Shown here piece after piece: positions 15,953 through 32,000 of a stretch of 32,000 bases of DNA. The notes under the pieces are model-generated. The model made no database searches. It was not told where the DNA came from and saw nothing but the letters and a program-made list of their open reading frames with translations. Numbering within the stretch: the stretch's first letter is position 1; each line of letters opens with the position of its first letter. This stretch comes from Telmatocola sphagniphila (lineage in GTDB: Bacteria > Planctomycetota > Planctomycetia > Gemmatales > Gemmataceae). The stretch covers positions 2,850,001-2,882,000 of the forward strand of contig NZ_CP074694.1 in the NCBI RefSeq assembly GCF_018398935.1, written 5' to 3'. The position numbers were made by a program, and so were the translations under genes.

Positions 15953-16033
15953 ATCAATGTATGAACCCTCGCCGGAGACAGAGAGGGGAGCTGGGACAAT
16001 ACGGGTTTCAACTATCCGAAAGAATGGCCGCGA

Positions 16034-16711
16034 TTATTTGCCATCGGCTTGGGAAATCCCCAATCCTGCCAACTGTTTCTGATTGTCGGCAATCACGACC
16101 TTGACGGGCGTCGGGTTCCCTAACCAGGCTTTGGGGGCCGTCGCTATCGGAGTCGGAGTCGCCAGAGAAGCATTAGCGGTCAGGCTGGCGGGCAATTGAG
16201 CGGGAGGAGAAGCCGTCGTCACCGTTTTGAGAGAGACCGGCGTAATCAATGTTGCGGGTGGAACTGCCGAAGGAGTCGCCGCCAGTGAGGTCGGTGGGTT
16301 CAGCGATACCGGCGGTTGTGGGTTGTAGGGAGACACGACATTTCCCAGACTGGCTTTAAGACCAGGAGCCTTCGAGGACGTGGCCACGGCAGTCACGCCG
16401 ATTGCCGGCGGAGGATTTCCGTCAGGCGTCAACCAGTGCTTGGAAGGAGTGGAATCCACCTCAGTCGGTTTAGCGACGACTTTGGGTGCATCGAAACGAG
16501 CGGCCAAAGGTGGGCTGATCACGGGATCAGTTTTTTCCGGAGTTACCGTAGGCAGAATTCTCGGCTCGGCAACAGGACTTCCATTCGGAGCACTCCAGCG
16601 CGTCTGGTAGTATCCCGAGGCGGTTGTGGCCGGCGGTCGGACACCGTCCTGGGCGAAGGCCAACCCGGCGGGGCCGCAGAGTAAAAGCAGGGCGAGACTC
16701 AACTTCTTCAT
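16034..16711 (-). CDS. Secreted Pro/Thr/Ala/Ser-rich low-complexity protein
   Basis: 225 aa. Signal peptide MKKLSLALLLLCGPAGLAFAQ. AAGGA sits 7 nt before the ATG. The rest is extended P/T/A/S-rich sequence carrying three W-x-x-P-[DN]-G-like motifs. Confidence 0.65.
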   Translation of the reverse strand: MKKLSLALLLLCGPAGLAFAQDGVRPPATTASGYYQTRWSAPNGSPVAEPRILPTVTPEKTDPVISPPLAARFDAPKVVAKPTEVDSTPSKHWLTPDGNPPPAIGVTAVATSSKAPGLKASLGNVVSPYNPQPPVSLNPPTSLAATPSAVPPATLITPVSLKTVTTASPPAQLPASLTANASLATPTPIATAPKAWLGNPTPVKVVIADNQKQLAGLGISQADGK

Positions 16712-16749
16712 CGGAATTCCTTTTCCTACGAATCTTCAAATCCTGGAAT

Positions 16750-17235
16750 TTACTGTCCTCGCGTAGCGCTGCCGCGAGCCGCTCCGTTGTTCAAACCGCT
16801 CGCCCCGAACGGACTGCCGGCATTAATGGCCCCGGTGGTTCTTCCGCTAAAGGAGTTGTTTACCACGCCCTGCCCCGCACTAAAGCCGCTGCGGTTCAGA
16901 CTCATGAAATAGGGCTGCGTATTCAGGAAGCGAATCGAATTGCCCGTGATGGGCACGTTATCGATTCCATTAATCGCCTGGGTATTTTGAACCTGCTGAG
17001 TGGCTAGCCCCTGCACCTGCTGCCGGAACTGCAGTTCGGGCCGAACCAGTCCATAATAGTTGGCAAGTGTGGAGCTACCGCCGCGAAGCAGGTTCAAATA
17101 AGGGCTCGTGGTTGGCCCTCCCTGACCGAAACCGGGATTCATGGCCCCGCCAATCGGTGGCCCCGCGGGATACTGCGCGAAAGCCGACGCATTCAAAACC
17201 AGAAACAGCGCGAAAGCGAGAAAAATTTGTCGCAT
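16750..17235 (-). CDS. Secreted Gly/Asn/Gln-rich protein
   Basis: 161 aa. Signal peptide MRQIFLAFALFLVLNASAFAQ. The mature part is rich in G, N, Q and S, with a duplicated PY[LF]..L.R.G motif. Confidence 0.65.
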   Translation of the reverse strand: MRQIFLAFALFLVLNASAFAQYPAGPPIGGAMNPGFGQGGPTTSPYLNLLRGGSSTLANYYGLVRPELQFRQQVQGLATQQVQNTQAINGIDNVPITGNSIRFLNTQPYFMSLNRSGFSAGQGVVNNSFSGRTTGAINAGSPFGASGLNNGAARGSATRGQ

Positions 17236-17250
17236 TTGGAAAACCTCTGA

Positions 17251-17279
17251 ATCGGGAGGGGTTCGATTACCCTCCCGAT
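17251..17279 (-). promoter_or_regulatory. Perfect 10-bp GC-rich intergenic hairpin; attenuator or RNA-stability element
   Basis: ATCGGGAGGG (17251-17260) pairs with CCCTCCCGAT (17270-17279), with a 9-nt loop. It lies between the Wza-like stop (17289) and the next start (17235). Confidence 0.5.
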
Positions 17280-17288
17280 ATTGTAGTC

Positions 17289-18386
17289 CTAGAATCCGCC
17301 CGAGACATTCGTCTGGCCATCCACGGCTCGCACAGCCCCGTTACCCAGCAGAGTGAATCCGAAGATTCTCTCGAACGGTGCCAGCACCTGAGCCAGCTTG
17401 TTGTCGAATGTGATCCAGGGGTTGGCCTTCACGAACAAGCGGTCCCCGGGGAGCAATTGATAATTCGTTGCTACCTTGCCTTTGGTGGTAATGCCCATCC
17501 AGTCGACGGGAAGAATCAGTTCTTCATTCACACTCGTCGGCGACGGTCGGGCGATCCAGATCGAGTTGGTGCTCGACACGGGTGACAACCCATACAGTTG
17601 GCTGACGGCATCCAGGACGGTGTCTTTCCCAGTTACCGGCAGGCGGACCACTTGTTGACCGCGGTTCGCCCCGTCATAGATCACGTAAAAAGTTTTGCTG
17701 TTGAAGGCAGCGACACTCACAGCGATCTCGGGTGACTGCAAATATTTACCCAGATGCTGTTCGATGACCTGTCGGGCCTGCGTTACCGTCAAGCCGACCA
17801 CTCGAACGTTTCCATAGGTACCGAGATTCACCGTTCCATCCGGCTGCACCAAATGCTCGCCGCGAATCTGCTGAAGAACGCGCGACTGGCTGAGCGACAC
17901 CACAGCCTTCGGATCCTTCAGTTTAACAATGGTCTTGAGGTGTTTTTCGATCGCTTCTTTAGCCTCGGGCAAAGTCATGCCCTGAAGCTTGATCGGTCCG
18001 CCATAGCTGGGGCCGAGATTCACGCTGCCATCTGGTTCCACAATATAAACGGTGTTGATCGGCTCTTCCGGATTGGAATTGGCAACCTGGATGAACAAGC
18101 CATCGAGCGGTTCGACCTTATAGGGCAATTGCGGTAGAACTCGAATAGCATCGATCCGCAGGATATCGGGCGGTTCGATCTGGTATTCCGGCATGGTAAC
18201 CATGTCGAGTTCGCGCGGCAGATTGCCGTTGTAAGGCTGCGGATCGCCATGGTGTGCTTTGGTGACTACATAAGGATCGAAAACGTTTTTCTGCGAAGAG
18301 GTGCTTAGACAACCTGTGTTGGCGAGCGCTATCGCCAGATAGAATCCACAAGCCATCGCGAATCGCCAGCGTCCGTTCGAAGTCAT
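17289..18386 (-). CDS. Polysaccharide export protein (Wza-like; Poly_export plus SLBB repeats), probable lipoprotein
   Basis: PEYQIEPPDILRIDA plus repeated DGSVNLG/DGTVNLG SLBB-type motifs. I prefer the internal ATG at 18386 because MTSNGRWRFAMACGFYLAIALANTGC is a lipobox-type signal and is preceded by GGGGGGAA. The listed ORF extends to 18524. Confidence 0.85.
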   Translation of the reverse strand: MTSNGRWRFAMACGFYLAIALANTGCLSTSSQKNVFDPYVVTKAHHGDPQPYNGNLPRELDMVTMPEYQIEPPDILRIDAIRVLPQLPYKVEPLDGLFIQVANSNPEEPINTVYIVEPDGSVNLGPSYGGPIKLQGMTLPEAKEAIEKHLKTIVKLKDPKAVVSLSQSRVLQQIRGEHLVQPDGTVNLGTYGNVRVVGLTVTQARQVIEQHLGKYLQSPEIAVSVAAFNSKTFYVIYDGANRGQQVVRLPVTGKDTVLDAVSQLYGLSPVSSTNSIWIARPSPTSVNEELILPVDWMGITTKGKVATNYQLLPGDRLFVKANPWITFDNKLAQVLAPFERIFGFTLLGNGAVRAVDGQTNVSGGF

Positions 18387-18617
18387 GGACGTTTCCCCCC
18401 ATCGCAGAACCCGGTGAAAATTTCCCCGCGCCGGATTCGCGAATCTGTTCGGATGGACCAAAAAACCGCAAGTGATCCCGAAATTCCCCCGAACTCGGAT
18501 ATGTACTTGTCGATCTTTAGCCAATCGGTGCTTTTATATCGGGAGGCTTTCTAACCGTAGCTTGGAAATGATGCAAGGTCGATTTTTCGAGTTCGATTAA
18601 AGTTGGTCACAAACGAT

Positions 18618-18938
18618 TTAATGTTCTCCGGACAGCTTCAATCCCACGATCCCCAGCAGGATGATGGCCACGAAGATTATTCGCAATAAATTGGCCGACT
18701 CGTTGAAAAGAACGATGCCCAGCAGAACGGTTCCCACAGCGCCGATGCCGGTCCAGACCGTGTAGCCGGTTCCAAGAGGGATACTTCGCAGCGCCAGGGT
18801 GAGACAGTAAACGCTGGCAAACATGGTAATCAAAGTAATCAGCGTCGGCCACAGTTTGCGGAAGCTGTCGGTGTACATCATGCTGACCGCCCAGCCCACC
18901 TCCAGCAACCCCGCAAGGATCAACCAGCCCCAATCCAT
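18618..18938 (-). CDS. sugE: SMR-family exporter, SugE/Gdx (guanidinium exporter) type
   Basis: 106 aa with 4 TM helices. MDWGWLILAGLLEVGWA carries the conserved TM1 Glu. The size and start are typical of SugE. The listed 181-aa ORF is an upstream extension, and another alternative ATG lies at 18971. Confidence 0.85.
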   Translation of the reverse strand: MDWGWLILAGLLEVGWAVSMMYTDSFRKLWPTLITLITMFASVYCLTLALRSIPLGTGYTVWTGIGAVGTVLLGIVLFNESANLLRIIFVAIILLGIVGLKLSGEH

Positions 18939-19217
18939 CGCTCGCCCCCGTGTGATACTCTCATTTGCCATGATGGCCTCGCGAATCCACTCCTGAAAAG
19001 GGATTCTAGAGATTCCTCGCCAACCCCCAAGGAGGCACTTTCCCCGGACCCGGCCGTTCGGTGATAGCAGAAATTGAGACCATCGCGGTCCCATTTTTGC
19101 AATCCTCTCAAACTGACAAACTTGCCTATTTCGACTCAATTTCTGAAACCGCCGTGCGAACAATCGAGTAGACTTCCATAATAACTCGCGACTTCTCCTT
19201 TGAATTGGGGTTCCCTG

Positions 19218-20969
19218 ATGCGTGGAGTCCTTCTCTCCTTACTTGCTGTTGCAGCGTTGCCCAGGGCCGCGCACTGTCAGACAGCGGATCCGCTGAAATA
19301 TATTCCCCCGGCGGCCCAGCTGATCATCAAAATCGAAAAGCCCCGGCAATTGCTGGAAAGCGCTTTTAAATTGCCGCTTTACGATCAGGCGATGAAGTTG
19401 AACACGCTGCAGCGGGCGCTCGACACGGCCGATTTTCGGAAGTTTCGCGACCTCGTCAGCTACTTCGAAAAGGAACTGGGAAAACCCTGGCCAGAACTAG
19501 TCGACGAACTCGCCGGTGGGGGCCTCGCACTGGGCGTTCGCTATGCCGATGCAGGGACGGATAACCCGACCATGCTGGTGATGCAATCTCGGAACGAAGA
19601 AACGCTCAAGAAATTCCTGATAAAACTCGTCGACATTTTTAAGCAGGAGCAAGAACGTCAGGGCGGCAAAAGCCAAGTGGAAAGCAAAAACCTCGAGGGC
19701 TTTGAAGCTTACCAACTGGACGAAAAAATCGTTTTGGTCCGCGACGGCTCGGTTCTGTTTGCCTTGAACCAGCAGAAACTGATCGCTCCGGTGATCGATC
19801 ACGTGAAAAAACTCCACGCTTCCCCGAATCTGGAGAGCATGGCCAACCATCCCGGCGTCACGAAGAGCCGCCAATTATTACCGAAAAATCCGGACGCGTG
19901 GTTCTGGTTCGATCTGGCTTGGGCCAAGACCCTCGAAGGTGCAAAAGGCATCCTGGAGCAACCCCGCAATGATCCTATTCCGACTTTCGTTTTTGCCGGC
20001 CTGCTCGATCTGGGCCGACGCTCCGAGTTGATTTCCGGTGCACTGACTTCCTCATCCGAGGGCTATGATTTCACTCTTCGCCTACCGGCTGGTTATGAAC
20101 ATCGGGGAATGGACACCATCCTGCATTTACCCAAGGAAGTTCCCGCTTCTTATTCCATTCCCTCTCTGCATCCCAAAAACACGCTCTATTCGCATGCTTT
20201 CTATCTGGATCTGGCCGCGTTTTACAACGAGCGAGAAAAAATCTTCAACAAGGAAGTCAGCAAAAATCTCGCGGATTTTCAAAAGCAAGTTTCGAAAGTG
20301 CTGCCTTCGGCTTCTTTTGAAAAACTGATGAATTCGACTGGGCCGATTCATCAAGTCGTGATTGCCTACTCCGACAAAAAACCTTACAAAACGGAGCCCA
20401 ACCAAAAGATTCCTCCCGGGGCTTACATCGTACCTTTGCGCGATAAAGAAGCCAGCCGGAATTTCGAAGCTCTGGTGCGGGCCGGCGGCTTCCTGGCTTC
20501 GACGCAGGTTCCCCTGAAGATGTCGGAGGAAACTTATGCTGGTGCAAAACTTCTGATCTATCGTTTCGATGAAACCAAGCCGTTCCCCAATAATGGCGAT
20601 CCGGAAAATATCCGCTTCAATTTCGCGCCCACGTTCGTTGATTTAGGCGACAAACTGCTGTTCAGTTCGACGACCGATCTCGCCCGGGAATTGATCGATC
20701 TTAACAAGGCCGCTCCCGCATCGTCCAGCAGTGCCGGTTACGAAAATATGAGCATGGAATTTAATGCCGAAGGGGGAGCCGCCTTGATCGCCGCGGATCC
20801 GCAGGCCGTGAAAATCCAACTGATTCTTTCTCAGGCGCTACGTGAAGCCGAGGCCCAAAAGGAAGCCGAACTGCTGATCAAGTACGTTCGAAATCTGGGC
20901 GTCCTCCGAATCAACACTGTATACTACCCCAACGATTTTCGCATGAATTTCCGCTGGATCCTGAAATAA
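19218..20969 (+). CDS. Hypothetical secreted protein
   Basis: The ATG at 19218 gives the signal peptide MRGVLLSLLAVAALPRAAHCQ. It is a long soluble protein with no family recognised. It sits 36 nt upstream of the DUF1800 gene on the same strand. Confidence 0.7.
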   Translation: MRGVLLSLLAVAALPRAAHCQTADPLKYIPPAAQLIIKIEKPRQLLESAFKLPLYDQAMKLNTLQRALDTADFRKFRDLVSYFEKELGKPWPELVDELAGGGLALGVRYADAGTDNPTMLVMQSRNEETLKKFLIKLVDIFKQEQERQGGKSQVESKNLEGFEAYQLDEKIVLVRDGSVLFALNQQKLIAPVIDHVKKLHASPNLESMANHPGVTKSRQLLPKNPDAWFWFDLAWAKTLEGAKGILEQPRNDPIPTFVFAGLLDLGRRSELISGALTSSSEGYDFTLRLPAGYEHRGMDTILHLPKEVPASYSIPSLHPKNTLYSHAFYLDLAAFYNEREKIFNKEVSKNLADFQKQVSKVLPSASFEKLMNSTGPIHQVVIAYSDKKPYKTEPNQKIPPGAYIVPLRDKEASRNFEALVRAGGFLASTQVPLKMSEETYAGAKLLIYRFDETKPFPNNGDPENIRFNFAPTFVDLGDKLLFSSTTDLARELIDLNKAAPASSSSAGYENMSMEFNAEGGAALIAADPQAVKIQLILSQALREAEAQKEAELLIKYVRNLGVLRINTVYYPNDFRMNFRWILK

Positions 20970-21005: not shown

Positions 21006-22403
21006 ATGTACCGAGAAGCACAAAACGCCTGGCTACCTTACGAACCCAGCCCCGCCAATCCCTGGACGCTGGCCAAGGTCGGGCATCTCTATCGACGGGC
21101 CGGTTTCGGTGGCAGTTATCCGGAATTACGCGCGGGGCTGGCTCTGAAACCTCAGGAATTGGTCGATCGCCTCGTGCATCCCCCCGGGGATATCAATGCG
21201 TTCGAGGCCGAAACCACTAGTTGGAGCCAGTCGATTCGTAAAGGGAATAACATCCAGCAAGCCAGCGACTGGTGGCTCTACCGGGTGCTGAAGACTCCCT
21301 TCCCATTGCGCGAGAAGATGACACTTTTCTGGCATAACCACTTTGCCACTTCATTCTCGAAAGTTCTGAATATTGGCTATATGCTCGGTCAGTACGAGTT
21401 AATGCACCAGCACGCCCTGGGCAATTTCGCGGAAATGCTACAAGGCATTTCCAAGGACCCGGCCATGCTGGTCTGGCTGGATACCATCCAGAGCAAAAAG
21501 GGTATGCCCAACGAGAATTATGCCCGCGAATTGATGGAACTTTTCAGTTTGGGAATTGGAAATTACACCGAAAATGACATCCGGGAAGCGGCGAGAGCTT
21601 TTACCGGCTGGGAGATCCGTAACGGGAAGTACCATTTCAACAAGGATCAGTTCGATGCCGGCGAGAAAGCAGTTTTCGGCAGAAAAGGCCCTTTCAGCGG
21701 CGAACAGATCGTGCAACTCTGCCTCGAAAAGGAAGCCTGTGCCCTCTTTATCGTTAAGAAACTCTATCTGTTCCTAATCAGTGAGTCGGCGGAATTGAAT
21801 CCGGAATTGCTGAAACCACTCGTGGAGCAGTTCCGGAAAGATTACAACATCGGCCAACTGGTCGAGACCATGCTCCGATCGAACCACTTCTTCGCCGCGG
21901 AGAACTATCGAGCCAAAGTGAAATCGCCGGTCGATTTTATCTGCGGCGTGGTGCTAGGTTTGCAAGGCTCGGTAGGTGTTTCCAATCTGGCTCGATCCCT
22001 CGAAAGTCTCGGACAGAATCTCTTCAGTCCCCCTTCCGTAAAAGGTTGGGACGGCGGGCCCGCCTGGCTGAATGCCCAAACCCTCCTTTATCGCCAGAAT
22101 CTGGCCTTGCAACTTTGCGAAACCCGACAAAAAGAGGATGGTACCAATCACTCTCTTCCACTCCCCTCCCGGCTCCTGAAACTGGCCGGGGTGCAAACCG
22201 ACCCGGCGGCCGTCGATCTGTTTCTGGAGGTCTTTCTACAAAAGGAAATTCCGACCCAGACGCGGGATAAACTGCTCGACTTCGCGGCGCATTCGAATCC
22301 CAAATCCTTCCCCAGTTATTGGAGCGAGGAACGGAAATCGGAACACAAAGCGATTTCGCTCTGCCATATGATTCTGACTCTACCGGAATGGCAGCTGGAT
22401 TAA
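21006..22403 (+). CDS. DUF1800 domain-containing protein
   Basis: Hallmark motifs YRRAGFG, REKMTLFWHNHFATS, GNFAEMLQGISKDPAMLVWLD and PNENYARELMELFSLG. Confidence 0.9.
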   Translation: MYREAQNAWLPYEPSPANPWTLAKVGHLYRRAGFGGSYPELRAGLALKPQELVDRLVHPPGDINAFEAETTSWSQSIRKGNNIQQASDWWLYRVLKTPFPLREKMTLFWHNHFATSFSKVLNIGYMLGQYELMHQHALGNFAEMLQGISKDPAMLVWLDTIQSKKGMPNENYARELMELFSLGIGNYTENDIREAARAFTGWEIRNGKYHFNKDQFDAGEKAVFGRKGPFSGEQIVQLCLEKEACALFIVKKLYLFLISESAELNPELLKPLVEQFRKDYNIGQLVETMLRSNHFFAAENYRAKVKSPVDFICGVVLGLQGSVGVSNLARSLESLGQNLFSPPSVKGWDGGPAWLNAQTLLYRQNLALQLCETRQKEDGTNHSLPLPSRLLKLAGVQTDPAAVDLFLEVFLQKEIPTQTRDKLLDFAAHSNPKSFPSYWSEERKSEHKAISLCHMILTLPEWQLD

Positions 22404-22465
22404 TTCGTGGAATTCCGCCCGATTCCGGTTCATACTAGAAGCTTCCCCACTCAACGAGACTTGCC

Positions 22466-23701
22466 ATGTTCAGACGCGATTTCCTCAAAACCGGTTCCCT
22501 TCTCGGGTTGGGCTCCAGCCTGCCTGCTTTTCTGGCCAACAGCGCCTACGCGACGCCGAACGCCGAAAAGCCCGGGGCGAAGGATACCATCCTGGTCGTC
22601 GTTCAATTCACCGGCGGCAACGATGGCCTCAATACCGTCATCCCCTATGCGGATGAGGAATATGCCAAACTTCGTCCGACGCTGAAAATTGCCAAGGATC
22701 GCGTGAAAAAATTGAACGATCATGTCGGGTTGCATCCCTCCATGACCGGGATGGCCGAGTTGTACGAAGAGAAATCTTTGTGCGTGGTACAAGGCGTCGG
22801 CTACCCAAACCCCAGCCAATCGCACTTCCGAAGCATGGATATCTGGCAAGCAGCCAGCACAGCCGAGACCTTGAATGAAGGCTGGCTGGGCAAGGCTCTC
22901 AAAGAGTTAAAAGCTCCCAGCTTCCATATCGCCAACGATGGCGAATCTTCTCCCTTGGCTTTCAGCGGCGCCCCCGTGCGAGTGCCCAGCGTTAAGAATC
23001 TGGAAGATTTTCAGCTGAAAATGACGGCTGCCAACGGCTCGGAGAAAGAAGGTCAGCGGAAGTTGCTGGGGGAAGTCTCTCAGGGAAGTTCAACTGCGGG
23101 GAATTCGAACAATTTGCTGCAATTCGTCCAGCGAACCGCACTGAACACCTACGCCAGTAGTGACAAGCTCCAGGAGATCGGCAAAAATTATCAGCCGAAA
23201 TCTCCCTATCCGCAATCGCCACTGGCAAACAAGCTCCGATTGTGCGCCCAGCTGATCGACGGCGGATTGGGTACCCGAATCTTCTATCTGAGTATCGACG
23301 GCTTCGACACTCACGCCAATCAGGGGGGAGCCAACGGAGCCCATGCAAACTTGCTAGCGCAGGTCTCCGGAGCGATCACCGCCTTTTACAAGGATCTATC
23401 TGCCCGCGGCCATAAAGATCGCGTGCTGATAATGACCTTCTCCGAATTCGGCCGGCGCGCCAAAGAAAACGGTAGTAAAGGAACCGATCACGGTAGCGGA
23501 GCTCCCATGTTCCTGGTCGGCGGCAAAGTGAATGCCGGAGTGCTGGGCGACCATCCCAGCCTAACCCAACTCGAGATGGGTAATTTGAAACACAATCTCG
23601 ACTTCCGGCAGGTTTACGCAGCGGTTCTCGATCAGTGGCTGGGAGTTTCCAGCCGTAAGGTGCTTAGTGGGGATTTCTCCGCCGCGAAAATTCTGGTTTG
23701 A
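22466..23701 (+). CDS. DUF1501 domain-containing protein (sulfatase/alkaline-phosphatase-like fold) with a Tat signal
   Basis: Twin-arginine signal MFRRDFLKTGSLLGLG. Motifs GGNDGLNTVIPY, GYPNPSQSHFRSMDIWQ, DGFDTHANQ and SEFGRR...GTDHG. Confidence 0.9.
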   Translation: MFRRDFLKTGSLLGLGSSLPAFLANSAYATPNAEKPGAKDTILVVVQFTGGNDGLNTVIPYADEEYAKLRPTLKIAKDRVKKLNDHVGLHPSMTGMAELYEEKSLCVVQGVGYPNPSQSHFRSMDIWQAASTAETLNEGWLGKALKELKAPSFHIANDGESSPLAFSGAPVRVPSVKNLEDFQLKMTAANGSEKEGQRKLLGEVSQGSSTAGNSNNLLQFVQRTALNTYASSDKLQEIGKNYQPKSPYPQSPLANKLRLCAQLIDGGLGTRIFYLSIDGFDTHANQGGANGAHANLLAQVSGAITAFYKDLSARGHKDRVLIMTFSEFGRRAKENGSKGTDHGSGAPMFLVGGKVNAGVLGDHPSLTQLEMGNLKHNLDFRQVYAAVLDQWLGVSSRKVLSGDFSAAKILV

Positions 23702-23712: not shown

Positions 23713-23749
23713 AAAAAAAGCACGCATCGATCGGATGCGTGCTTTTTTT
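23713..23749. terminator. Bidirectional rho-independent terminator
   Basis: A-run (23713-23719), stem AGCACGCATC (23719-23728) pairing with GATGCGTGCT (23734-23743), 5-nt loop, then a T-run to 23749. It lies between the convergent stops at 23701 and 23777. Confidence 0.85.
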
Positions 23750-23776: not shown

Positions 23777-26140
23777 TCAACCATCGAATCGCCCCGGTTT
23801 GCTGCTATCGTTGCCGCCATTGGGGGTATTACCCGAATTCGACTTCATAATGTTTTCCACTTCCACAAGCCATTTCTTCCAGCGGTCTTCGCGTTCCTTG
23901 CGTTCTTTATTTTCCTTCTCCGAAGCACTCGTCAGAACGGACATCTTGCCGGTGTTCACATCCATCAGAAGGATTTCCGTGGCACATTCATCGGTATAGG
24001 TCTTGTTGTTGATCACTCGGGTTCGCTTACCGCCGTCGATATCGACCACGAGTAACTTTTCATTCATCCCATAGGTGGGATCGACCGGTATCCCGCGAGC
24101 AGGCTCCTTGGCTTTCGGATTTCTGGACGGCTCGCTGGCCCGAATCGTGTAGTGGTTGAGAGTGGAATCCCACAGAGGGAGATTCACCAACTGCTTGCCA
24201 CCGACGATTTGACCGCGACCGACCACCACATCCGTTACGATCCACTCGCCCACCGGTTCGCGATAGTTGGCTCCCACTTCAATCTGTGGCATCCAGCGTT
24301 GGAATTGCAGGATCGCCTGTCCATCCTTAACGTCAATTTTCTTGTCGGCTTCCCGATCGATGGAATAGATGTAGGTCTCGGGAGGAATGCCGACTGTGTC
24401 CTTCATGTCGATCCATTCGCCTTTCAGCTCGGAAATTTCCGCATCGGAGGGACGGGAAACCAGTTTGTCCTTGCCGAAATTCGGGTTCTTCATCTTCACC
24501 TGAATGCGATACTGATAACGATAGCCCGGCAGAACATCGATATCGACGAAGCGAACGAGCACTGCATCGGGAGCTTCTCCACTCGCCAGATTGTTAATTT
24601 CACCACCTCCCGGGAAGCCACCGTTTGCGCCGCCGGGACCACTTCCCGGTACACCCGGAGGAGGGAAACTCCCAGAGGAGGAACCAGAATTGGGTGGGAA
24701 CGATTTTCCGCCTTTACCAGGAGCGCCGGGGCCCCCCGGCCCACCCGGAACCATTCCGCTCGGACCTCCAGGACCACCCGGTCCGCCCGGTCCGCTCTTA
24801 GATCCAGGCCCCATTCCTTCCGATCCGCCGCCAGGGCCGCCGGCCGAGGAGTAGGAGGTCGGTGGTTCGTAAATATCGCCTTGCCCCAGGAGAGGGTTCG
24901 GGTTCTTAGGCAACGCTGGGGGTCGATTCAGTTCTTTGAAATGTTTGATGGTGGCTTCGAGGCTGGGAAGCTTCAAATCGGGGTATTTCATACCGTCCAT
25001 CAAGGGGGGAAGGTTCATATAGAGCCGGTTGCTCACATCGAGCTTAACGATTTGCAGATCCGGGTCGTCCGCTTCCACCGCGCCCATGGTTCGACGGTAG
25101 ATCACATTGCGATAGCGATCCTCGAAGTGCAGCGGGCTCCAGTCCACCGCGATCGTGCCATCTTCATTGAACACGCGGCGTTGGACGTTTATGCCGGTGA
25201 ACACCGGGGTCGCGTCGCTGGTGTTATAAATTTCGCTGATGGAGGAAAGGCGAAGGGCTTCCCGGATCCGGTCCAGCTGCTGCTTGTAAGGGAAGGAGGC
25301 ATTAACCACCACCATTCGCTGCGGCCAGATGGTTCGAGCCGGCTCTTTGCCTTCGAGAGCCTTCTCATCGTTCAAGGAGACGTATTGAACCGTCGGTCGT
25401 AAAGATTCCGTTGTGTTCAGACTACCCGAACCCGTCATTCGACCTGAGCCGGAACCTTTACCGCCGCCACCGGACGACCCCCCTGGACCGCTCGCCATGC
25501 CAGGTCCACCGGGGGCTCCCGGTCCGCCAGGTGCTCCTGGTCCGCCAGGAGCTCCCGGCGCACCCGGACCTCCTCGACCACTACTGCCTGGAAAACCTCC
25601 CTGTGGCATGTTATTGCCCGCGTTCGGATTGTAGTTAGCACCACCGATCTTGTTTCGAATTCCTTTGAAAGGGTCTTTCACCTTTTGTTCGTTGCCTCGC
25701 TCCTTCATTTCTATCACACCGATCATGGGCGTGTTGGAATCCAGCTTGAGATCGACCGCCACGATTCGGGTATGAACGGGATTTGCTTGAATCTCCGTGA
25801 CACCCAGTACCGGCGGATTCGATCGGCGGCTGGAAGGAATAGCAATCGGATCGAAAATGGGAGTGTTGGCAGCGAATAAGGCTGCCGGTATTTGTTCCTG
25901 TTTGTAAGGAACCTTTACGAACTCGGGAAGATCGGAAATGGTGGCATCGCCATTAGCGATCTGGCTCGTGATCTGCGATGCCTTCTGCTTGATCTGGTTG
26001 GCAAACTCCGCCGGATTAGCACCTGAGAAAGCGCTGGAAACGCCCAGTGCCAGCATGCCAAGCAGCGCGATTCCGGCAATGCCCATGCCGATTTTTTCGC
26101 CCTTCTGCAGAAGCAGTTCTTGAAAATCGACCTTTGCCAT
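23777..26140 (-). CDS. Large bitopic membrane protein (gene 3 of the PilMN-like operon) with two Gly/Pro-rich spacers
   Basis: 787 aa. Short cytoplasmic N-terminus, and one TM helix at aa 16-38 (IGMGIAGIALLGMLALGVSSAF). Low-complexity segments at aa 166-240 and 431-514. A beta-sandwich-like signature VRFVDIDVLPGYRYQYRIQV, and a Lys/Glu-rich C-terminus. GGGG sits 8 nt before the ATG. Confidence 0.85.
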   Translation of the reverse strand: MAKVDFQELLLQKGEKIGMGIAGIALLGMLALGVSSAFSGANPAEFANQIKQKASQITSQIANGDATISDLPEFVKVPYKQEQIPAALFAANTPIFDPIAIPSSRRSNPPVLGVTEIQANPVHTRIVAVDLKLDSNTPMIGVIEMKERGNEQKVKDPFKGIRNKIGGANYNPNAGNNMPQGGFPGSSGRGGPGAPGAPGGPGAPGGPGAPGGPGMASGPGGSSGGGGKGSGSGRMTGSGSLNTTESLRPTVQYVSLNDEKALEGKEPARTIWPQRMVVVNASFPYKQQLDRIREALRLSSISEIYNTSDATPVFTGINVQRRVFNEDGTIAVDWSPLHFEDRYRNVIYRRTMGAVEADDPDLQIVKLDVSNRLYMNLPPLMDGMKYPDLKLPSLEATIKHFKELNRPPALPKNPNPLLGQGDIYEPPTSYSSAGGPGGGSEGMGPGSKSGPGGPGGPGGPSGMVPGGPGGPGAPGKGGKSFPPNSGSSSGSFPPPGVPGSGPGGANGGFPGGGEINNLASGEAPDAVLVRFVDIDVLPGYRYQYRIQVKMKNPNFGKDKLVSRPSDAEISELKGEWIDMKDTVGIPPETYIYSIDREADKKIDVKDGQAILQFQRWMPQIEVGANYREPVGEWIVTDVVVGRGQIVGGKQLVNLPLWDSTLNHYTIRASEPSRNPKAKEPARGIPVDPTYGMNEKLLVVDIDGGKRTRVINNKTYTDECATEILLMDVNTGKMSVLTSASEKENKERKEREDRWKKWLVEVENIMKSNSGNTPNGGNDSSKPGRFDG
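25503..25574 (-). repeat. In-frame 18-nt tandem repeat (3 good copies plus 1 degenerate) encoding (GAPGGP)n
   Basis: Copies at 25503-25520, 25521-25538 and 25539-25556, with a degenerate copy at 25557-25574. All differences among the three good copies fall on codon third positions of the minus-strand frame. Confidence 0.7.
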
Positions 26141-26212
26141 AACTAAGCCCCTTGACTGTTAAACTGTCTCAACGAGCTGACAGTGATCGTAGCTCGGATT
26201 TTGTCTAATTAC

Positions 26213-28039
26213 CTATTTCTTATCGGTTGCGGATGCAGCGGCCGGCTGCTCCCCACCCGAAGGTGCAAATTTTTCGTAGAGCGATGCAACGCCATACAAG
26301 GTGAACTCGACGAGGTTGTTGGTCGTTTGATCGGACGGAGGATTATTTGTGGAATCAAAATTACCACCCGGAATACCTCCCCCCGGGAAAATACTGCCCG
26401 ACCCCTTGTTACCTCTGGGACCGGGAGGGCCACCCGCACTCCCCAGACCACCGGGCCCGGGGCTGCCGATGGGTCCTGCAGGCCCGCCCGGACCGCCGGG
26501 ACCGCGTGGGCCAGATCCAGGGCCGGGACCTTGCGGAATTCCCACACCTTTGCCCCCGCGTCCTCCCGATCCGCTGCTCCCGAGTTCCCCAGCGGGACCG
26601 GAATTCAATCCTGTGTTTCCTGAACTTACCCCCGACTCAGAGTTGGAAGAAACCAATGCCGAGAGATCTCGCGATCGCTTGAAATGGTTTTGCGTAATCT
26701 GAAATCGCAGCTTCGTATTGGCGAAGGCCACCATCAAATCCTGAATGTAGGGCTGCTCGCAAATGACGACAATTCCCAGCGGCATACGGCGAACCTGAGG
26801 CGTCACGTCGATGTACCGTTTGCGAATCAAACCGCAAGCTGAAACAGCACCACCGGCGGCATCCGCCCCGGAAGAACCGAAGCCTCCGGCTTTGGAGCCG
26901 GGGCCACCCATTTCACCCGGCGTTCCGCCCGAGGTCGTCGAACTTCCGGTACCATCGGCCGCCGCGGCGTTGGCATCGGTAACTGCCTTTTCGCTGATAG
27001 GTGCCATCTTCAATCCAAGTGCCTGCTGGCGGTTGGACCGATAACCCATTTCGATGCGGTCGATCCGCTTCACGGGAATCGTCTTGATATCGAAGACTTG
27101 TTCCACTCGAGCTAACTCTTCCAGTCGACGACCGTTAGGAATTTTGTGAGACGGAATCGACTTGACCTCGACTGTATCGCCGGCGTGAATCTGTTCACCT
27201 TCGACGATGAACGGAAAGGGCTCGACGCGCGGATCGGAGTCCAGCCATACATTCAGAATCATCTGGTTGTTTTCGCCCAGGCTCAGTAAACGATTCGTCA
27301 CATTCTTGATCTTGCCCTTCATGATGCGATCGCGGCGATCTTCCGAATCCACAATTTGAAGGTCGAGTTCCCAGAGCGGGCTGACGAATTTACGATTGAA
27401 TTTATTTTCCGGCTTCGGATCGATGGTTTTGAATCGTCCGTTGCTCTTGTTGACCTCGTCAATCGTCGCGATGACCAGGGATTGAACCCAAAGATCTTCC
27501 ATGGCCAGCCACATATCTTCGCTGCCGGGGGGATAGGGAAATCGCTTGAGGGTCTTCACCACCGAGTCGGGACTGCCCAGAAAATGCATCGGTTCGACCT
27601 GCTTCGCCAGATCCTTCAACACGTTGGGATAGTGTTCCTTGAACTGGTCTTTCAGCGTATCGAGATCGGGAATTTCCGTTTTGGTCAATTCGGTGCCGAA
27701 CTTCAGGCTTTCCAGCTTTTCACGATGGTGCTGCTGAAGAGTTTCCGGCCATTTGTAGATGTCTTTCTGAGCATCCCAGGCGATCTTCCACATGGTATCC
27801 AGGCTGCCGAAAATCGTCTTGTTCTGCTCTTCGAGTTTACCCAGCTTGGACTGGGGCTGAACCTTGGTACCATCGATTTCCTTTTTGGCATCCTGGTTTT
27901 TCTTGGCAACGGTTTCCGTTGCATCCGCCACGCCAAATACCACGCCGTAGAGGCAGATGAAGAACAGAATAAGCACCACTCCGGTCAAGATCCAGAAATG
28001 ATGTTTTTTCAGAACTTCGACATCGATCTTGTTGGCCAT
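26213..28039 (-). CDS. Large bitopic membrane protein (gene 2 of the PilMN-like operon; positionally PilO/GspM-like) with two Gly-rich spacers
   Basis: 608 aa. One TM helix at aa 15-37 (FWILTGVVLILFFICLYGVVFGV), then a charged, probably coiled segment. Low-complexity segments at aa 355-399 and 464-562. GGAG sits 7 nt before the ATG. Confidence 0.85.
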   Translation of the reverse strand: MANKIDVEVLKKHHFWILTGVVLILFFICLYGVVFGVADATETVAKKNQDAKKEIDGTKVQPQSKLGKLEEQNKTIFGSLDTMWKIAWDAQKDIYKWPETLQQHHREKLESLKFGTELTKTEIPDLDTLKDQFKEHYPNVLKDLAKQVEPMHFLGSPDSVVKTLKRFPYPPGSEDMWLAMEDLWVQSLVIATIDEVNKSNGRFKTIDPKPENKFNRKFVSPLWELDLQIVDSEDRRDRIMKGKIKNVTNRLLSLGENNQMILNVWLDSDPRVEPFPFIVEGEQIHAGDTVEVKSIPSHKIPNGRRLEELARVEQVFDIKTIPVKRIDRIEMGYRSNRQQALGLKMAPISEKAVTDANAAAADGTGSSTTSGGTPGEMGGPGSKAGGFGSSGADAAGGAVSACGLIRKRYIDVTPQVRRMPLGIVVICEQPYIQDLMVAFANTKLRFQITQNHFKRSRDLSALVSSNSESGVSSGNTGLNSGPAGELGSSGSGGRGGKGVGIPQGPGPGSGPRGPGGPGGPAGPIGSPGPGGLGSAGGPPGPRGNKGSGSIFPGGGIPGGNFDSTNNPPSDQTTNNLVEFTLYGVASLYEKFAPSGGEQPAAASATDKK

Positions 28040-28140
28040 TTTTCACTCCAACCGAAAAGCCGCTTGCGGCGGTGTACGATTTAGCTATTCGAGATCGGCC
28101 CGGTTGAAAATCCAATCGAGCCTGACAGTGATTATTTCAA

Positions 28141-30708
28141 CTATTTGCCGCCACGGCCTGGCCCCGGTCCACCTGCTGGTGCTGCGGGAACGCTTTCCGT
28201 GATGTCGGAGGCCGGGGTAATGAGTTTGTCCGAAGGTGTCGGTTCTTTCCAAACGAACACCACCACGAATTCGTAGCGCGGCTTGATGACTTTTCGAATG
28301 GGATTGCCGTTGTTATCGAACTGAGGCTGCTGCTGTACCGCAGCGCTTTCGGTATCCGCATCCTTGGAGGCGTAAGTACCGCTTCCGCCCCCTCCCCCAC
28401 TGCCCATTTTGCCGCCGGAGCCTGCCAGGCTTCCAGGACCCATGGTCATGGAACCCGGGCCGGGACCGGGGCTGCCGAAACCCGATTTTCTACCGCCACC
28501 TCCCGGGGAGCCCGGACCAGCAAGTTCACCCGGACCGCTTGAGGCCCCTCCCATCGAACCCCCCGCGCTGACCAGCGGAACCCAAGGTTCGGCGGACGAA
28601 GCAGAAGCGGAGCCTACTCCTTCGCCGCTGGGAGGACTTCCTCCCGAGCTCTGGGAACTGTCGCTGGCCGATTCCGAACCCGCGGCCGGTAAAATTTCCT
28701 CGATCAGGCTGCTGCCGATCCGACGATACTGCCCCGGATCGGGCATTTTGTCCGTCCAATAGTTGTAGAGAAACACGTGGCTGATATTGCCCAGGATCGG
28801 TTCGATTTCCCGGGTAGTGGTGTTCGGATCCGACTCCCGCTTCTGTGAGGCTCGGAGGAGATTCTGAATCACTGCACGTCGCAGGAATTCTCGGGTGGGA
28901 ACCAGCGGCGTGTTATAGAACGTCGTGCCCCGAATCTCTACCAGCCAACCTTCTCCCGTTGGCTTTTCCTTCCAGGCATCCTTGTTGAAATACTTGATCG
29001 CGAGATCGGCGCCGTCGAAGTTATAGGGGAATTCCTTGCTGCTTCGGCCGGTGTAGATATTCAGGTAATTTTCCAGATTATCGTAAGCCCCCTTGAGATT
29101 GGTTGTGAAGCGGGTGTTAATCGCTTCCACATCCACCGCAGCCAGATATTCGCGATAAGCTTCATCGATTGAGGCGGTCGGCTGGAGGCCATTGCGAAGC
29201 CGATCCACATAGCGTTTGGAGGCTTCGAGCCCCAGCTGATTCTGCCACAGGACGACCTGATTCTGATCGTTCAGATTGCCATTTTCTCCGGGAACCGGAA
29301 GGATATTATCAATGAACTGGTACATGCGTATCCAGTTCTTGCGTTCGTCCTGTCCCGAAATAACCGATTGCACCTTTTTCGTCGTGGCTTCGACGTCACT
29401 GATCTTCGAAGCGATTTCTTTGTTGATTTTATCGGCGCGAGTTTTTGCATTTTTCCCTTCATCGATCGCCGATTGAATGATTGTGGCTTGAGCCTGGTTG
29501 TAAGGCATCGAATAGCCGATCGCCAGAACGCCCGTGCCCATCATGAACATGGCGGCCGCGGCCACCGCCCAGGGTTTCTTGGCTCGGATCAGACGTTCTT
29601 TGTGAATTTCCGGCGGTAAAAGGTTTGTAGTCAATCGGGACTGCCCCAACCCCTGGGTCGCCAGACCATAAGCGACGGGGAAGCTCAGCATATTTTCGAT
29701 GAAAGCGGGTGCATTCAGAACCGAATCGCCCGTCATTCGATCGAACTTGCTCGGCTTTCGCACATCCAGATTCAGCTTCTCGGCCAGATACTTCTGCATG
29801 CCGGGAAGTTTGAAACCGCTGCCGATACCCACCATGTAAGAAACGGTGGCATCACGGTGCGTGTTGGTAAAGTAGCCCAGCGATCGCTGCACTTCCCCGA
29901 CGAAATCGGTAAGGACTGGACGCAGAGCTTTCAAGATATTGGGAAGATCGGGCGATTTCGCCGCGTTCCGCTTCACATGCTCGGCCTTCGCGAAGGTCAG
30001 TTTCATTTCCTTCGTCAGAGCGCGGGTGAAGTGGTTGCCACCCAGCGGAATAGGTCGCTGCCAGATGATCTTGTCCGCATCGGTGATGATCAGATTGGAG
30101 TTATCGGTACCCAGATCGAGGGCCACCACGCACTTCTTTTTGCCCCGTTCGTCTTTCGATGCTCCGTCGGGCATGAGATCATAGGTGACGTAGTTGCACA
30201 GGGCCAACGGCGACATCTGAATCAGATGCACTTCGATCCCAGCGCTCTGGAAGTGCGACAGGAACCGGGAGATCATATCCCGTTTCATAGCAAACAGGCC
30301 GATTTCCGTTTCGACAAAGCCGTCGGAAATCTGCCCCTGGCCAATGCGCTGGAAGTCCCACACCACTTCTTCGAGCGGGAAGGGAATCTGTTGCTTGGCC
30401 TCAAACTTTACGATGTCGTCGATCTTTTTCTCTTCGACCGGCGGCAATTTCACGAAACGGGCCAGACCCGATTGGCCGGGAACGCCCATCGCCACCTTGT
30501 CCCCTTTTATGGGATTCCGGGACAGGAATTTCTCCAGTGCTTCCTTGGTCAATTCGTCTGGATTGGCATCGGGCTGGCTGAGAATTTTTGGATGTTCGAT
30601 ATAGTCGAATGCAGTGGCAGTTGGTTTACCGTCGATTATTTCCAACCGAATGGCTTTGAGGGCGCATTGTCCTACGTCAATGCCCCAAACGCCGGAAGTG
30701 ACTGCCAT
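28141..30708 (-). CDS. PilM-like actin-fold ATPase domain fused to a PilN-like TM segment and a large periplasmic extension (GspL-like topology)
   Basis: 855 aa. Actin-fold phosphate motifs WGIDVGQCALKAIRL and VALDLGTDNSNLII, plus GIGSGFKLPGMQKYL. PilN-type NLLPPE motif at aa 362-367 (nt 29608-29625). TM helix at aa 379-399. About 450 aa lie outside the membrane, including a G/S/P-rich segment at aa 675-778. GGAG sits 7 nt before the ATG. Confidence 0.85.
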   Translation of the reverse strand: MAVTSGVWGIDVGQCALKAIRLEIIDGKPTATAFDYIEHPKILSQPDANPDELTKEALEKFLSRNPIKGDKVAMGVPGQSGLARFVKLPPVEEKKIDDIVKFEAKQQIPFPLEEVVWDFQRIGQGQISDGFVETEIGLFAMKRDMISRFLSHFQSAGIEVHLIQMSPLALCNYVTYDLMPDGASKDERGKKKCVVALDLGTDNSNLIITDADKIIWQRPIPLGGNHFTRALTKEMKLTFAKAEHVKRNAAKSPDLPNILKALRPVLTDFVGEVQRSLGYFTNTHRDATVSYMVGIGSGFKLPGMQKYLAEKLNLDVRKPSKFDRMTGDSVLNAPAFIENMLSFPVAYGLATQGLGQSRLTTNLLPPEIHKERLIRAKKPWAVAAAAMFMMGTGVLAIGYSMPYNQAQATIIQSAIDEGKNAKTRADKINKEIASKISDVEATTKKVQSVISGQDERKNWIRMYQFIDNILPVPGENGNLNDQNQVVLWQNQLGLEASKRYVDRLRNGLQPTASIDEAYREYLAAVDVEAINTRFTTNLKGAYDNLENYLNIYTGRSSKEFPYNFDGADLAIKYFNKDAWKEKPTGEGWLVEIRGTTFYNTPLVPTREFLRRAVIQNLLRASQKRESDPNTTTREIEPILGNISHVFLYNYWTDKMPDPGQYRRIGSSLIEEILPAAGSESASDSSQSSGGSPPSGEGVGSASASSAEPWVPLVSAGGSMGGASSGPGELAGPGSPGGGGRKSGFGSPGPGPGSMTMGPGSLAGSGGKMGSGGGGGSGTYASKDADTESAAVQQQPQFDNNGNPIRKVIKPRYEFVVVFVWKEPTPSDKLITPASDITESVPAAPAGGPGPGRGGK

Positions 30709-31141
30709 AGGGATTTCTCCGATAGACTATAAGCCGGATATGGGAACAGAATTACGACGGAAGCGGTGGTCGAACCAGCCATCGCCGTCGCTAGAATGTC
30801 CCTAATACGTTACACCGTATCACGGTACTAAGTATCCTGTCAATTAACTAAACAAAGTGAAGAGGGGAATCGTTGGCGCGATTGGAGCGAATCGGTGGAT
30901 GGAGAGGGTTCTTCAAGTCTCCGGTTTTTGCAGATCATTTCTGTTCCCCGCTCGAACGTCCTAACCGAAACAACCGCTCCAATCCCATTCCCTCGAAAAA
31001 CAGTTGAAACCCGAGCCTGGAGCTTTGCCGTTAAACCCTTGCAAAACCAAATCTTAGAGCGAGCTTTGCCCTGAATTCCGCTATGGTCTTAGCTCTAGTT
31101 ACTCAGGCAAAAAAATGACTTGAGACCCATCCCGAGTTCGC

Positions 31142-32000
31142 TTACTCTTCCACCGAAACCCATTGATTCCATTTTTCCTTCAACGGCGTTGTTGATATTT
31201 CCAGGCCGGTCACTCGCGAGACCACGAGACGGACTTTTTCGACCAGCAAATCTCCCGTAGTAAGGGTCTTGCAGCCGCGCAACTCGGCTTCTCGCAAAAA
31301 TTTGCTGCCGCGCAGCCCCGCTTGCAAATCGACTACGACCATCCCCTGCCGAAGATAACCCGGATGAAGAATCAACTCTTGAGAATCATCTCCTTCCTCG
31401 GGTTGCGGCTCGCCCGCCACAATGAGGCCATCGTGAAAGGTTTGATAAATCGCTTCCCACAGAATGAATCGAGCCCCCAACGCCACAGCGAGTCGAGGAC
31501 CATTCTGGCGATCCTTGCTCGCAAGGATCATCAGAGCCCCTTGCTCTTTGAGCCGGGCTACCACCATTCGACCGGGGGCCGTATCGCCCGCCACCACAAT
31601 TGTTTTATCCTTGAGCGGTTGAGGGTTTTCCGGCTCCTTGGCCTGAAAGACCTCCAGAAAAAGTTTGGCGGTGACTTCCCCCAGGAGATTGCTACCGCGC
31701 CAGCCCTGGTCGCCTGGGCTCATCCAGTCGGCGGCCTGCACCGGTGCACGAGCCTGTTCGTCTAAAAAAGCGGCCTCGTGGACGTTTTCGATGAAATCAT
31801 CTTCGACCGCAACCCCTTGCAGTTTCACAGCTTCGATGATCTTGCGAAAAAGCTTCCAGTTACCGACTTGCAACGGCCAGCAGCGTGTGGGGGCCGGAGT
31901 TTCGGAGAACCCGGCATTCAGCAGCCCGCAAAGAATTTGATCCTTTTCGCTCATCCCCGTAACGCCGATCAGTTTTGTCGATTTGGAAATTGCACGGTAC
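31142..32000 (-). CDS. Shikimate dehydrogenase (AroE)-like Rossmann protein, truncated by the right window edge; canonical catalytic residues apparently missing
   Basis: The frame stays open upstream of the listed ATG (31954) to the window end (YRAISKSTKLIGVTGMSEKDQILCGLLNAGF), matching the AroE N-terminal pattern GxxGxPxxHSxSPxxHNxxF only in outline. By-eye alignment to E. coli AroE: GVAVEDDFIENVH vs GANVTVPFKEEAF, and GSNLLGEV vs GDNTDGVG. Confidence 0.65.
   Translation of the reverse strand, partial: YRAISKSTKLIGVTGMSEKDQILCGLLNAGFSETPAPTRCWPLQVGNWKLFRKIIEAVKLQGVAVEDDFIENVHEAAFLDEQARAPVQAADWMSPGDQGWRGSNLLGEVTAKLFLEVFQAKEPENPQPLKDKTIVVAGDTAPGRMVVARLKEQGALMILASKDRQNGPRLAVALGARFILWEAIYQTFHDGLIVAGEPQPEEGDDSQELILHPGYLRQGMVVVDLQAGLRGSKFLREAELRGCKTLTTGDLLVEKVRLVVSRVTGLEISTTPLKEKWNQWVSVEE

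Follow-up and report, generated by a model that had tools for sequence, protein, structure and literature searches.

A conserved three-gene unit of planctomycetes as the probable inner-membrane scaffold of a secretin-dependent type IV filament machine

What machine does a PilM-like protein serve when it is encoded together with two large membrane proteins that no database describes? This question is raised by three genes within a 32,000-nucleotide (nt) stretch of the genome of Telmatocola sphagniphila (Planctomycetota, Gemmataceae; contig NZ_CP074694.1, positions 2,850,001 to 2,882,000), hereafter called the window. We consider it probable that these genes, hereafter the triad, encode the planctomycete inner-membrane alignment (assembly-platform) subcomplex of a secretin-dependent type IV filament machine, the partners of which are encoded elsewhere in the genome in the Gemmatales. 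The triad is most likely a strongly diverged, enlarged version of a known pilus or secretion scaffold, and it could belong to either a type IVa-like pilus or a type II secretion system (T2SS). The three genes have been inherited together, and in one order of the Planctomycetes a secretin gene stands directly after them.

The triad consists of the following genes, listed in the order of transcription.

28141 to 30708, minus strand: gene 1, 855 amino acids (aa), QVL34477.1, annotated by NCBI as 'type IV pilus assembly protein PilM'; a PilM-PilN-type fusion
26213 to 28039, minus strand: gene 2, 608 aa, QVL34476.1 (KIH39_11375), annotated as 'hypothetical protein'; bitopic, candidate PilO/GspM counterpart
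23777 to 26140, minus strand: gene 3, 787 aa; bitopic, candidate PilP/GspC-like connector to the secretin

The intergenic gaps are 101 nt (genes 1 and 2) and 72 nt (genes 2 and 3), and Shine-Dalgarno-like sequences (GGAG for genes 1 and 2, AGGGG for gene 3) stand 8 to 12 nt ahead of each ATG. An earlier note on this DNA, made from the letters alone, had reported these lengths, gaps and ribosome-binding sites together with a 433-nt gap upstream, and all of them were reproduced when measured again.

What is the identity of gene 1? Its product is divided as follows.

29656 to 30684, minus strand: cytoplasmic PilM actin-fold domain (residues 9 to 351), with Pfam, TIGRFAM and PDB matches
29605 to 29631, minus strand: PilN N-terminal signature 'TTNLLPPEI' in cis (residues 360 to 368)
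29512 to 29574, minus strand: single transmembrane (TM) helix (residues 379 to 399; hydropathy maximum at residue 380), conserved 'AKKPWAVAAAA'
28705 to 29511, minus strand: conserved periplasmic part (residues 400 to 668), no family match
28324 to 28704, minus strand: Gly/Ser/Pro-rich low-complexity loop of about 125 aa (residues ~669 to 795)
28240 to 28278, minus strand: conserved terminal beta-strand-like segment 'RYEFVVVFVWKEP' after the loop (residues 811 to 823)

The cytoplasmic domain matches the Pfam family PilM_2 (PF11104) with an E-value of 2e-35 (122.8 bits against a cut-off of 27) and the pilM model TIGR01175 with 165.4 bits (cut-off 133), and it also matches the PilM chains of the PDB entries 3jc8, 2ych and 5eou at E-values from 5e-27 to 4e-16. 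Directly after this domain stands 'RLTTNLLPPEI', which is invariant or nearly so in 60 orthologues. NLLP is the PilM-binding motif of PilN, and the PilM-PilN(1-12) fusion of 5eou aligns with gene 1 up to residue 365. The NLLP motif, the 'AKKPW' sequence and the TM helix are kept across the same 60 orthologues, fused to PilM. Because the PilM domain directly precedes the PilN signature and the TM helix, we call gene 1 a PilM-PilN fusion: the PilM domain, the NLLP peptide of PilN, a TM helix and a periplasmic domain form one polypeptide, as had already been read from the letters. The Pfam family PilN (PF05137) was not matched at E<=1 by full-length gene 1 or at E<=10 by a loop-deleted C-terminal construct, and T2SSL was not among the Pfam families returned for gene 1.

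Next, we investigated the two partners of gene 1. Gene 2 was modelled with AlphaFold 2 (AF2), with a mean predicted local distance difference test (pLDDT) score of 75.7, and its product is divided as follows.

27935 to 28000, minus strand: TM helix with the invariant juxtamembrane motif 'KKHHFW' (residues 14 to 35), the sole N-terminal hydrophobic helix
26951 to 27934, minus strand: coiled coil, helical domain (invariant WLxxEDLWVQ) and beta-sandwich (215 to 331), together residues 36 to 363; pLDDT mostly above 90 in the AF2 model
26339 to 26647, minus strand: Gly/Pro-rich disordered loop ahead of the last strand (residues 465 to 567); pLDDT below 50
26276 to 26314, minus strand: terminal strand (residues 576 to 588)

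The C-terminal unit of the gene 2 model is formed by a helix (347 to 363), two strands (407 to 409 and 416 to 428), a second helix (429 to 440) and two further strands (447 to 455 and 576 to 588), and it is broken by two disordered Gly/Pro loops (366 to 395 and 465 to 567). In terms of secondary-structure order only, these elements follow an alpha-beta-beta-alpha-beta-beta succession, which is the topology of GspM, PilO and PilN. Gene 2 homologues in the Pirellulales are shorter (473 to 496 aa), and the matches of the gene 2 hidden Markov model (HMM) there skip the beta-sandwich region. Two further likenesses of gene 2 were considered and set aside. Residues 256 to 301 (window ~27137 to 27274) resembled the N-domain of GspD (PDB 3oss) at E 0.055, but this match was lost with the family profile and is probably due to chance; the likeness by eye of 'RMPLGIVV...FQITQ' to 'PMPLEIAF...FTVN' of the Akkermansia protein Amuc_1100 and to PilO had no support from hhalign and is not relied on.

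The model of gene 3 (mean pLDDT 70.2) runs from the TM helix through a beta-hairpin, a linker, an alpha/beta domain, a second linker and an all-beta region to a final helix.

26027 to 26092, minus strand: TM helix (residues 17 to 38), no Cys
25406 to 25645, minus strand: first Gly/Pro-rich disordered linker, 80 aa (residues 166 to 245)
24929 to 25402, minus strand: alpha/beta domain (residues 247 to 404); pLDDT 85 to 97
24590 to 24901, minus strand: second Gly/Pro-rich disordered linker, about 100 aa (residues 414 to 517)
23930 to 24562, minus strand: all-beta C-terminal domain(s) with the conserved motifs RFxDxxVxPGxxYxYR and NPNFG (residues 527 to 737); high pLDDT

Since the TM helix carries no lipobox cysteine, gene 3 does not encode a lipoprotein. 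An exhaustive HMMER profile search shows how large its family is: 1,168 clusters at 50% identity were collected at E<=1e-30, and 3,114 at E<=1e-10. Each of genes 2 and 3 thus has one N-terminal TM helix, and full-length searches of Pfam, NCBIfam and PDB sequences returned no match, in agreement with the description of the two products in the earlier note as bitopic and unrecognisable by sequence. They represent two large protein families that no database describes.

Are the three genes a functional unit? In order to compare the triad among genomes, the GTDB species genomes were scanned with the gene 2 profile, which gave 137 relatives; 79 loci of these were taken for comparison, mostly from Gemmatales and also including Isosphaera, Singulisphaera and Planctomycetaceae records. 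More than 100 genomes and metagenome contigs have kept the triad as a unit, and it is therefore not a chance assembly. The order and strand of genes 1, 2 and 3 are constant in every locus that is long enough, amounting to about 60 complete triads among the 79 GTDB loci and further contigs. The flanks vary by lineage (TatD, HemC, HslU, DUF1501, CysK, GT39 and a Ser/Thr kinase), and across the 79 GTDB loci the only conserved neighbours are lineage-local housekeeping genes. The gene order of an alignment scaffold and the expansion of its proteins, both of which the earlier note had pointed out, are thereby borne out, the expansion being due to Gly/Pro-rich disordered segments.

Which genes accompany the triad outside the Gemmatales? 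A search for homologues of the periplasmic part of gene 1, which returned mostly fragments, also led to Pirellulales-type contigs. In one of these (L168), a frameshifted gene 1 is followed by a 473-aa gene 2 homologue (HMM E-value 2e-20), a 698-aa gene 3 homologue (E-value 9e-29) and a 1,312-aa secretin (16375 to 20313). This secretin matches the Pfam Secretin family at E 2e-19, and its best NCBIfam match is TIGR02515 PilQ (82 bits). The same four genes are found in a metagenome-assembled genome of the Lacipirellulaceae (L170), where gaps of 13 and 32 nt separate the triad genes, 425 nt lead to the secretin, and the secretin homologue (5565 to 8126) is 60% identical to that of L168. The third contig (L165) has the triad and then the secretin in the same arrangement. 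The Pirellulales secretin scores best as PilQ/MshL and not as GspD. As to its architecture, the Pfam Secretin domain of the 1,312-aa protein begins at residue 1094, after an N-terminal extension with low-complexity stretches.

A second kind of linkage is seen in a deep-branching, Gemmatales-like contig (L167), the assembly of which is noisy and contains frameshifts. Here the triad (9944 to 16992, plus strand) diverges from a cluster of filament genes (1 to 9635, minus strand) that includes GspE/PilB-type ATPases (three T2SSE paralogues; GspE/PilB 314/295 bits), GspF/PilC and GspG-like pseudopilins; the GspE and GspG models score slightly higher on these neighbours than the PilB and pilin models do. 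Moreover, the genome of Limnoglobus roseus, a member of the Gemmataceae that carries the triad (L019), is reported to encode PilB, PilC, PilD, PilQ and PilT (PMC7397252). In Rhodopirellula baltica, pilM is induced together with pilB, pilT and pilC (PMC2754498), the orthology of that pilM to gene 1 being unchecked.

Several observations weigh against assigning the triad to a filament machine. The window and the other Gemmatales-type loci, about 80 in all, have no gene for a secretin, an ATPase, a platform protein or a pilin within 10 kb of the triad, also when searched by tblastn. The secretin gene downstream on the same strand is confined to the three Pirellulales-type contigs, which belong to one lineage, and the spacing between gene 3 and the secretin gene is 425 to 520 nt there. 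The adjacency in L167 was seen once only, and an ACT-domain gene separates the triad from the filament genes there. In addition, the periplasmic parts of the triad have no detectable link in homology or fold to the known partners: the periplasmic part of gene 1 and genes 2 and 3 showed no significant similarity to PilN, PilO, GspM, PilP, GspC or Amuc_1100/1099 in Pfam and NCBIfam searches, profile searches against PDB sequences, hhalign comparisons and, for the models of genes 2 and 3, Foldseek searches against the PDB. Neither gene 2 nor gene 3 matched a Pfam or NCBIfam family as a full protein or as a loop-deleted construct; PDB sequence searches with the two as single proteins and as profiles gave low-complexity noise only, and no PDZ domain was detected in gene 3 by Pfam. 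A Foldseek comparison of the AlphaFold models, which had been proposed as a way to reveal PilO/GspM or PilP folds, gave no PDB match at E<1e-3 for either protein. When all the members of the alignments were scanned, the marginal T2SSM signal (PF04612, GspM) was the only one, and T2SSM was the only Pfam family matched by more than one gene 2 orthologue. This signal is weak: it was found in 2 of 34 orthologues, with a best E-value of 0.015, below the cut-off, and gene 2 of the window itself matches neither PilO (PF04350) nor GspM (PF04612) in Pfam. At the level of sequence, the T2SSM matches may be taken as a hint of a relation to GspM, not as proof.

Do these gaps mean that genes 2 and 3 are something else? 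They might encode unrelated periplasmic or surface proteins, such as low-complexity structural proteins, which share an operon with the PilM-PilN fusion and are not counterparts of PilO and PilP. All of the homology and fold tests against PilO/GspM and PilP/GspC were negative or marginal, as this explanation would predict. It does not account for the strict order and co-inheritance of the three genes from Gemmatales to Pirellulales with gaps of 13 to 100 nt, for the single N-terminal TM topology that fits the canonical partners, or for genes 2 and 3 standing after the PilM/N gene and ahead of the secretin gene, just as pilO and pilP do. We regard this explanation as the least probable of those considered here. 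By analogy in order, topology and synteny, gene 2 is likely to be PilO-like and gene 3 PilP-like. The earlier proposal of PilO/GspM and PilP/GspC identities thus remains a candidate reading based on order and topology, while significant similarity in profile, HMM-HMM or Foldseek comparisons was not obtained.

Has the scaffold been put to another use in the Gemmatales? The PilM fold is that of FtsA, and in a phylum without FtsZ the triad might serve as an envelope-spanning tether or have a cytoskeletal or division role. The solitary triads of the roughly 80 Gemmatales-type loci, with variable housekeeping neighbours (HemC, HslU, TatD, CysK), speak for such repurposing, as do the weak Pfam FtsA match of gene 1 (31.7 bits against a cut-off of 31.8), the strong expansion of the proteins and their lineage-specific domains without a fold match. 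On the other hand, other planctomycetes have orthologous triads in linkage with secretin and GspE/F/G genes, the NLLP motif of PilN, through which PilM is coupled to PilN in pilus machines, is invariant, and dispersed pilus genes are normal in many bacteria. Furthermore, the papers returned by several full-text literature searches gave no link between a PilM-like protein and planctomycete division. We therefore judge repurposing to be very unlikely. The suggestion that the scaffold is orphaned or repurposed for want of nearby pilus genes is not supported in view of the secretin in L165, L168 and L170, the GspE/F/G genes in L167 and the pil genes reported for Limnoglobus roseus. Of the proposed synteny test, the constancy of order and strand came out clearly, and adjacency to filament genes was seen in L165, L167, L168 and L170 and in none of the roughly 80 Gemmatales-type loci. 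The evidence comes close to what the earlier note had itself set against its idea, namely that the triad would be no more than the alignment complex of a machine that has its genes at another place in the genome.

Assuming that the triad belongs to a type IV filament machine, which known machine does it resemble most? Like the type IVa pilus (T4aP) set PilM-PilN-PilO-PilP with PilQ, as in Myxococcus, Pseudomonas and Thermus, it has a PilM domain, an NLLP motif and a TM helix in gene 1. The order pilMNOPQ is matched by the succession of M/N, bitopic, bitopic and secretin, the last in the Pirellulales relatives only; in the window, gene 3 is followed by a terminator and a convergent DUF1501 gene, and the directly downstream secretin that is a feature of pilMNOPQ-type operons is absent. 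Gene 3 is comparable to PilP in having long disordered linkers ahead of a beta-rich C-terminal domain. The differences from the T4aP are the fusion of PilM with PilN in gene 1, the TM anchor of gene 3 where PilP is a lipoprotein, and the size of the triad proteins, which are 2 to 4 times larger and contain Gly/Pro-rich segments of 100 to 130 aa. Gene 2 also has an additional helical domain and a beta-sandwich, and gene 3 an additional alpha/beta domain.

In the T2SS, GspL, like MshI of the MshI-MshJ pair in the MSHA pilus, is the closest match to the architecture of gene 1, in that an actin-like domain in the cytoplasm is followed by a TM helix and a periplasmic domain. Like gene 2, GspM is bitopic, and like gene 3, GspC has a TM anchor. 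Unlike GspL, however, the cytoplasmic domain of gene 1 matches PilM models. The signals are thus mixed: the fusion in gene 1 and the TM anchor of gene 3 are GspL- and GspC-like, whereas the scores point to PilM for the cytoplasmic domain and to PilQ for the Pirellulales secretin.

All three proteins are enlarged by Gly/Pro-rich disordered segments, and the orthologues contain between 0 and 313 aa of low-complexity sequence. The long low-complexity stretch of genes 1 and 2 precedes the last conserved beta-strand and thus lies within a domain. Since these loops are inserted within and not between domains, a role as simple spacers is ruled out. The periplasmic parts of the three genes were also compared with one another, and paralogy was rejected, as hhalign aligned only the TM helices and the low-complexity regions.

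How would the triad work in such a machine? First, the PilM domain of gene 1 would bind its own NLLP segment and dock under the PilC/GspF platform and the PilB/GspE ATPase. Second, the periplasmic parts of genes 1 and 2 would pair in the manner of PilN/PilO or GspL/GspM. Gene 3 would be held in the membrane by its TM helix, like GspC, and its two Gly/Pro linkers may act as extensible spacers across the wide and variable planctomycete periplasm. Finally, the C-terminal beta domain of gene 3 would contact the N-terminal domains of the secretin. In the Gemmatales, including the organism of the window, the secretin, ATPase, platform and pilin would be supplied by genes elsewhere in the genome.

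A further system has to be compared with the triad, since the top NCBIfam match of gene 1 is Amuc_1101_fam (NF045709; E 8e-62), which extends past the PilM domain to residue 467. Amuc_1101 belongs to the MUL2 locus of Akkermansia, which was taken from gut metagenomes for this comparison, the Amuc_1100 sequence being verified against PDB 6lad and 6kny. Amuc_1101 (612 aa), Amuc_1100 (317 aa), Amuc_1099 (337 aa) and the secretin Amuc_1098 follow one another in this order. Like the triad, the MUL2 locus (Amuc_1102, Amuc_1101/MUL2B, Amuc_1100, Amuc_1099 and Amuc_1098) occurs in the Planctomycetes-Verrucomicrobia-Chlamydiae (PVC) superphylum. In it, a fusion of PilM, a TM helix and a periplasmic part is likewise followed by two bitopic proteins and by a secretin with a long extension at its N-terminus, for which the triad has its counterpart in the Pirellulales relatives. 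The extension of Amuc_1098 is a TPR region, and the Pirellulales secretin is also extended at its N-terminus. An Ala/Pro-rich segment of Amuc_1100 (residues ~245 to 283) is placed like the low-complexity loops of genes 1 and 2. Unlike their MUL2 counterparts, the planctomycete proteins are about twice as long, and neither gene 2 and Amuc_1100 nor gene 3 and Amuc_1099 have detectable homology.

Is the triad, then, the planctomycete counterpart of MUL2, that is, a PVC-specific PilM-based envelope complex for attachment to polymers, or for their uptake into an enlarged periplasm, and not an ordinary motility or adhesion pilus? The Amuc_1101_fam match reaching beyond the PilM domain and the Akkermansia locus of the same layout, down to the low-complexity loop in Amuc_1100, argue in this direction. 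MUL2 has been linked to mucin uptake (PMC13174399), and planctomycetes take up polysaccharide via crateriform structures, according to work cited in PMC11131199; both add to this case. The sequence comparisons point the other way. The Amuc_1101_fam score of gene 1 is 209.9 bits, far under the cut-off of 650, and covers profile positions 54 to 458 of 608, so that gene 1 falls outside the family as defined. In phmmer searches, gene 1 is about as close to Myxococcus PilM (97.6 bits) as to Amuc_1101 (105.6 bits). BLASTP and hhalign comparisons of the triad with Amuc_1100, Amuc_1099, Amuc_1098 and Amuc_1102, using full-length and loop-deleted domain profiles, aligned only the PilM domain and the TM helix, and no Amuc_1102-like gene accompanies the triad. 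A MUL2 counterpart in this strict sense is thus unlikely. As MUL2 itself is regarded as pilus- or secretion-like, it would be more a refinement of the filament-scaffold interpretation than an alternative to it.

A link of the triad to Akkermansia MUL2 and to planctomycete polymer uptake is nevertheless plausible. The planctomycete envelope is unusual in its enlarged periplasm, its crateriform structures and its fibre-mediated uptake of polymers; in Planctopirus, dextran is taken up via crateriform structures and fibres. To our knowledge, hardly anything has been established about the molecules behind these features, and a literature search found no paper on this triad when directed at a planctomycete PilM system, at components of crateriform structures or at a division role. 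One speculative extension, which we consider unlikely, about as much so as a strict MUL2 counterpart, is that the triad and the giant, N-terminally extended secretin constitute the trans-envelope core of a PVC-specific filament derivative related by descent to MUL2. Such a core would underlie the crateriform and fibre apparatus and capture whole polymers and import them into the enlarged periplasm, and its Gly/Pro segments would let it stretch over a periplasm of varying width.

Returning to the filament scaffold, the two large unannotated families are the likely PilO- and PilP-equivalents of the type IV filament machinery of this phylum, and synteny ties them to a giant secretin. Genome-mining tools now detect only 'PilM' at these loci, and the new families would allow complete planctomycete systems to be recognised. 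They also provide gene targets for knock-outs, cryo-electron tomography and pull-downs in tractable planctomycetes. The architectural parallel with MUL2, which is of medical interest through Amuc_1100, suggests a PVC-wide theme that can be tested.

The surroundings of the triad in the window include two non-coding features.

30709 to 31141, minus strand: upstream stretch of 433 nt without an open reading frame (ORF) of at least 80 aa; GGAG Shine-Dalgarno at 30720 to 30717
23713 to 23749, both strands: bidirectional intrinsic terminator (A7, GCACGCATC, loop, GATGCGTGC, T7), read directly from the sequence

The 433-nt leader has no Rfam match, and Rfam and tRNA scans of the whole window found nothing. 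The terminator, which had been recognised before, was found again as A7, hairpin and T7; its stem is a G+C-rich hairpin of 9 bp (23742 to 23734 and 23728 to 23720) between the triad and the convergent DUF1501 gene, and it was not listed in a consensus terminator scan of the window. The remaining genes of the window encode DUF1800/DUF1501 proteins, an SMR protein, a Wza-like exporter, EF-Ts, S2, a U32 peptidase and similar products. When 20 neighbouring ORFs were scanned with Pfam and all six frames were searched for prepilin motifs, no pilin, PilB/T, PilC or secretin was found in the window, just as the earlier note had stated.

Directly upstream of the triad, on the same strand, lies a gene for a 495-aa DHquinase_I protein (3-dehydroquinate dehydratase; window 31142 to 31954, minus strand; full gene at L001 5411 to 6898). 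In the Akkermansiaceae, the neighbours of MUL2 loci include 3-dehydroquinate dehydratase, according to a figure legend in PMC13174399. Ancient PVC synteny or coincidence may lie behind this common neighbour, which is not kept in the other planctomycete triad loci.

Long ORFs run antisense to the triad (window 24152 to 25402, 27356 to 28084 and 29857 to 30732, all on the plus strand), and ORFs opposite the triad genes also cluster into conserved 'families' across loci. We take them not as genes but as shadow-ORF artefacts of the Gly/Pro-rich coding segments.

On the downstream side, a DUF3352-DUF1800-DUF1501 gene row typical of planctomycetes (window 21006 to 23701 and 19200 to 20969, both plus strand) converges on the terminator of the triad. 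DUF1501 genes are also found near the triad in 11 other loci, which is probably due to the abundance of this family in the phylum. Further away, a Wza-like polysaccharide export protein (Poly_export; window 17289 to 18524, minus strand) adjoins an SMR-family transporter (18618 to 19163, minus strand). The SMR ORF as listed is about 75 residues longer at its N-terminus; the gene call in L001 gives just 117 aa.

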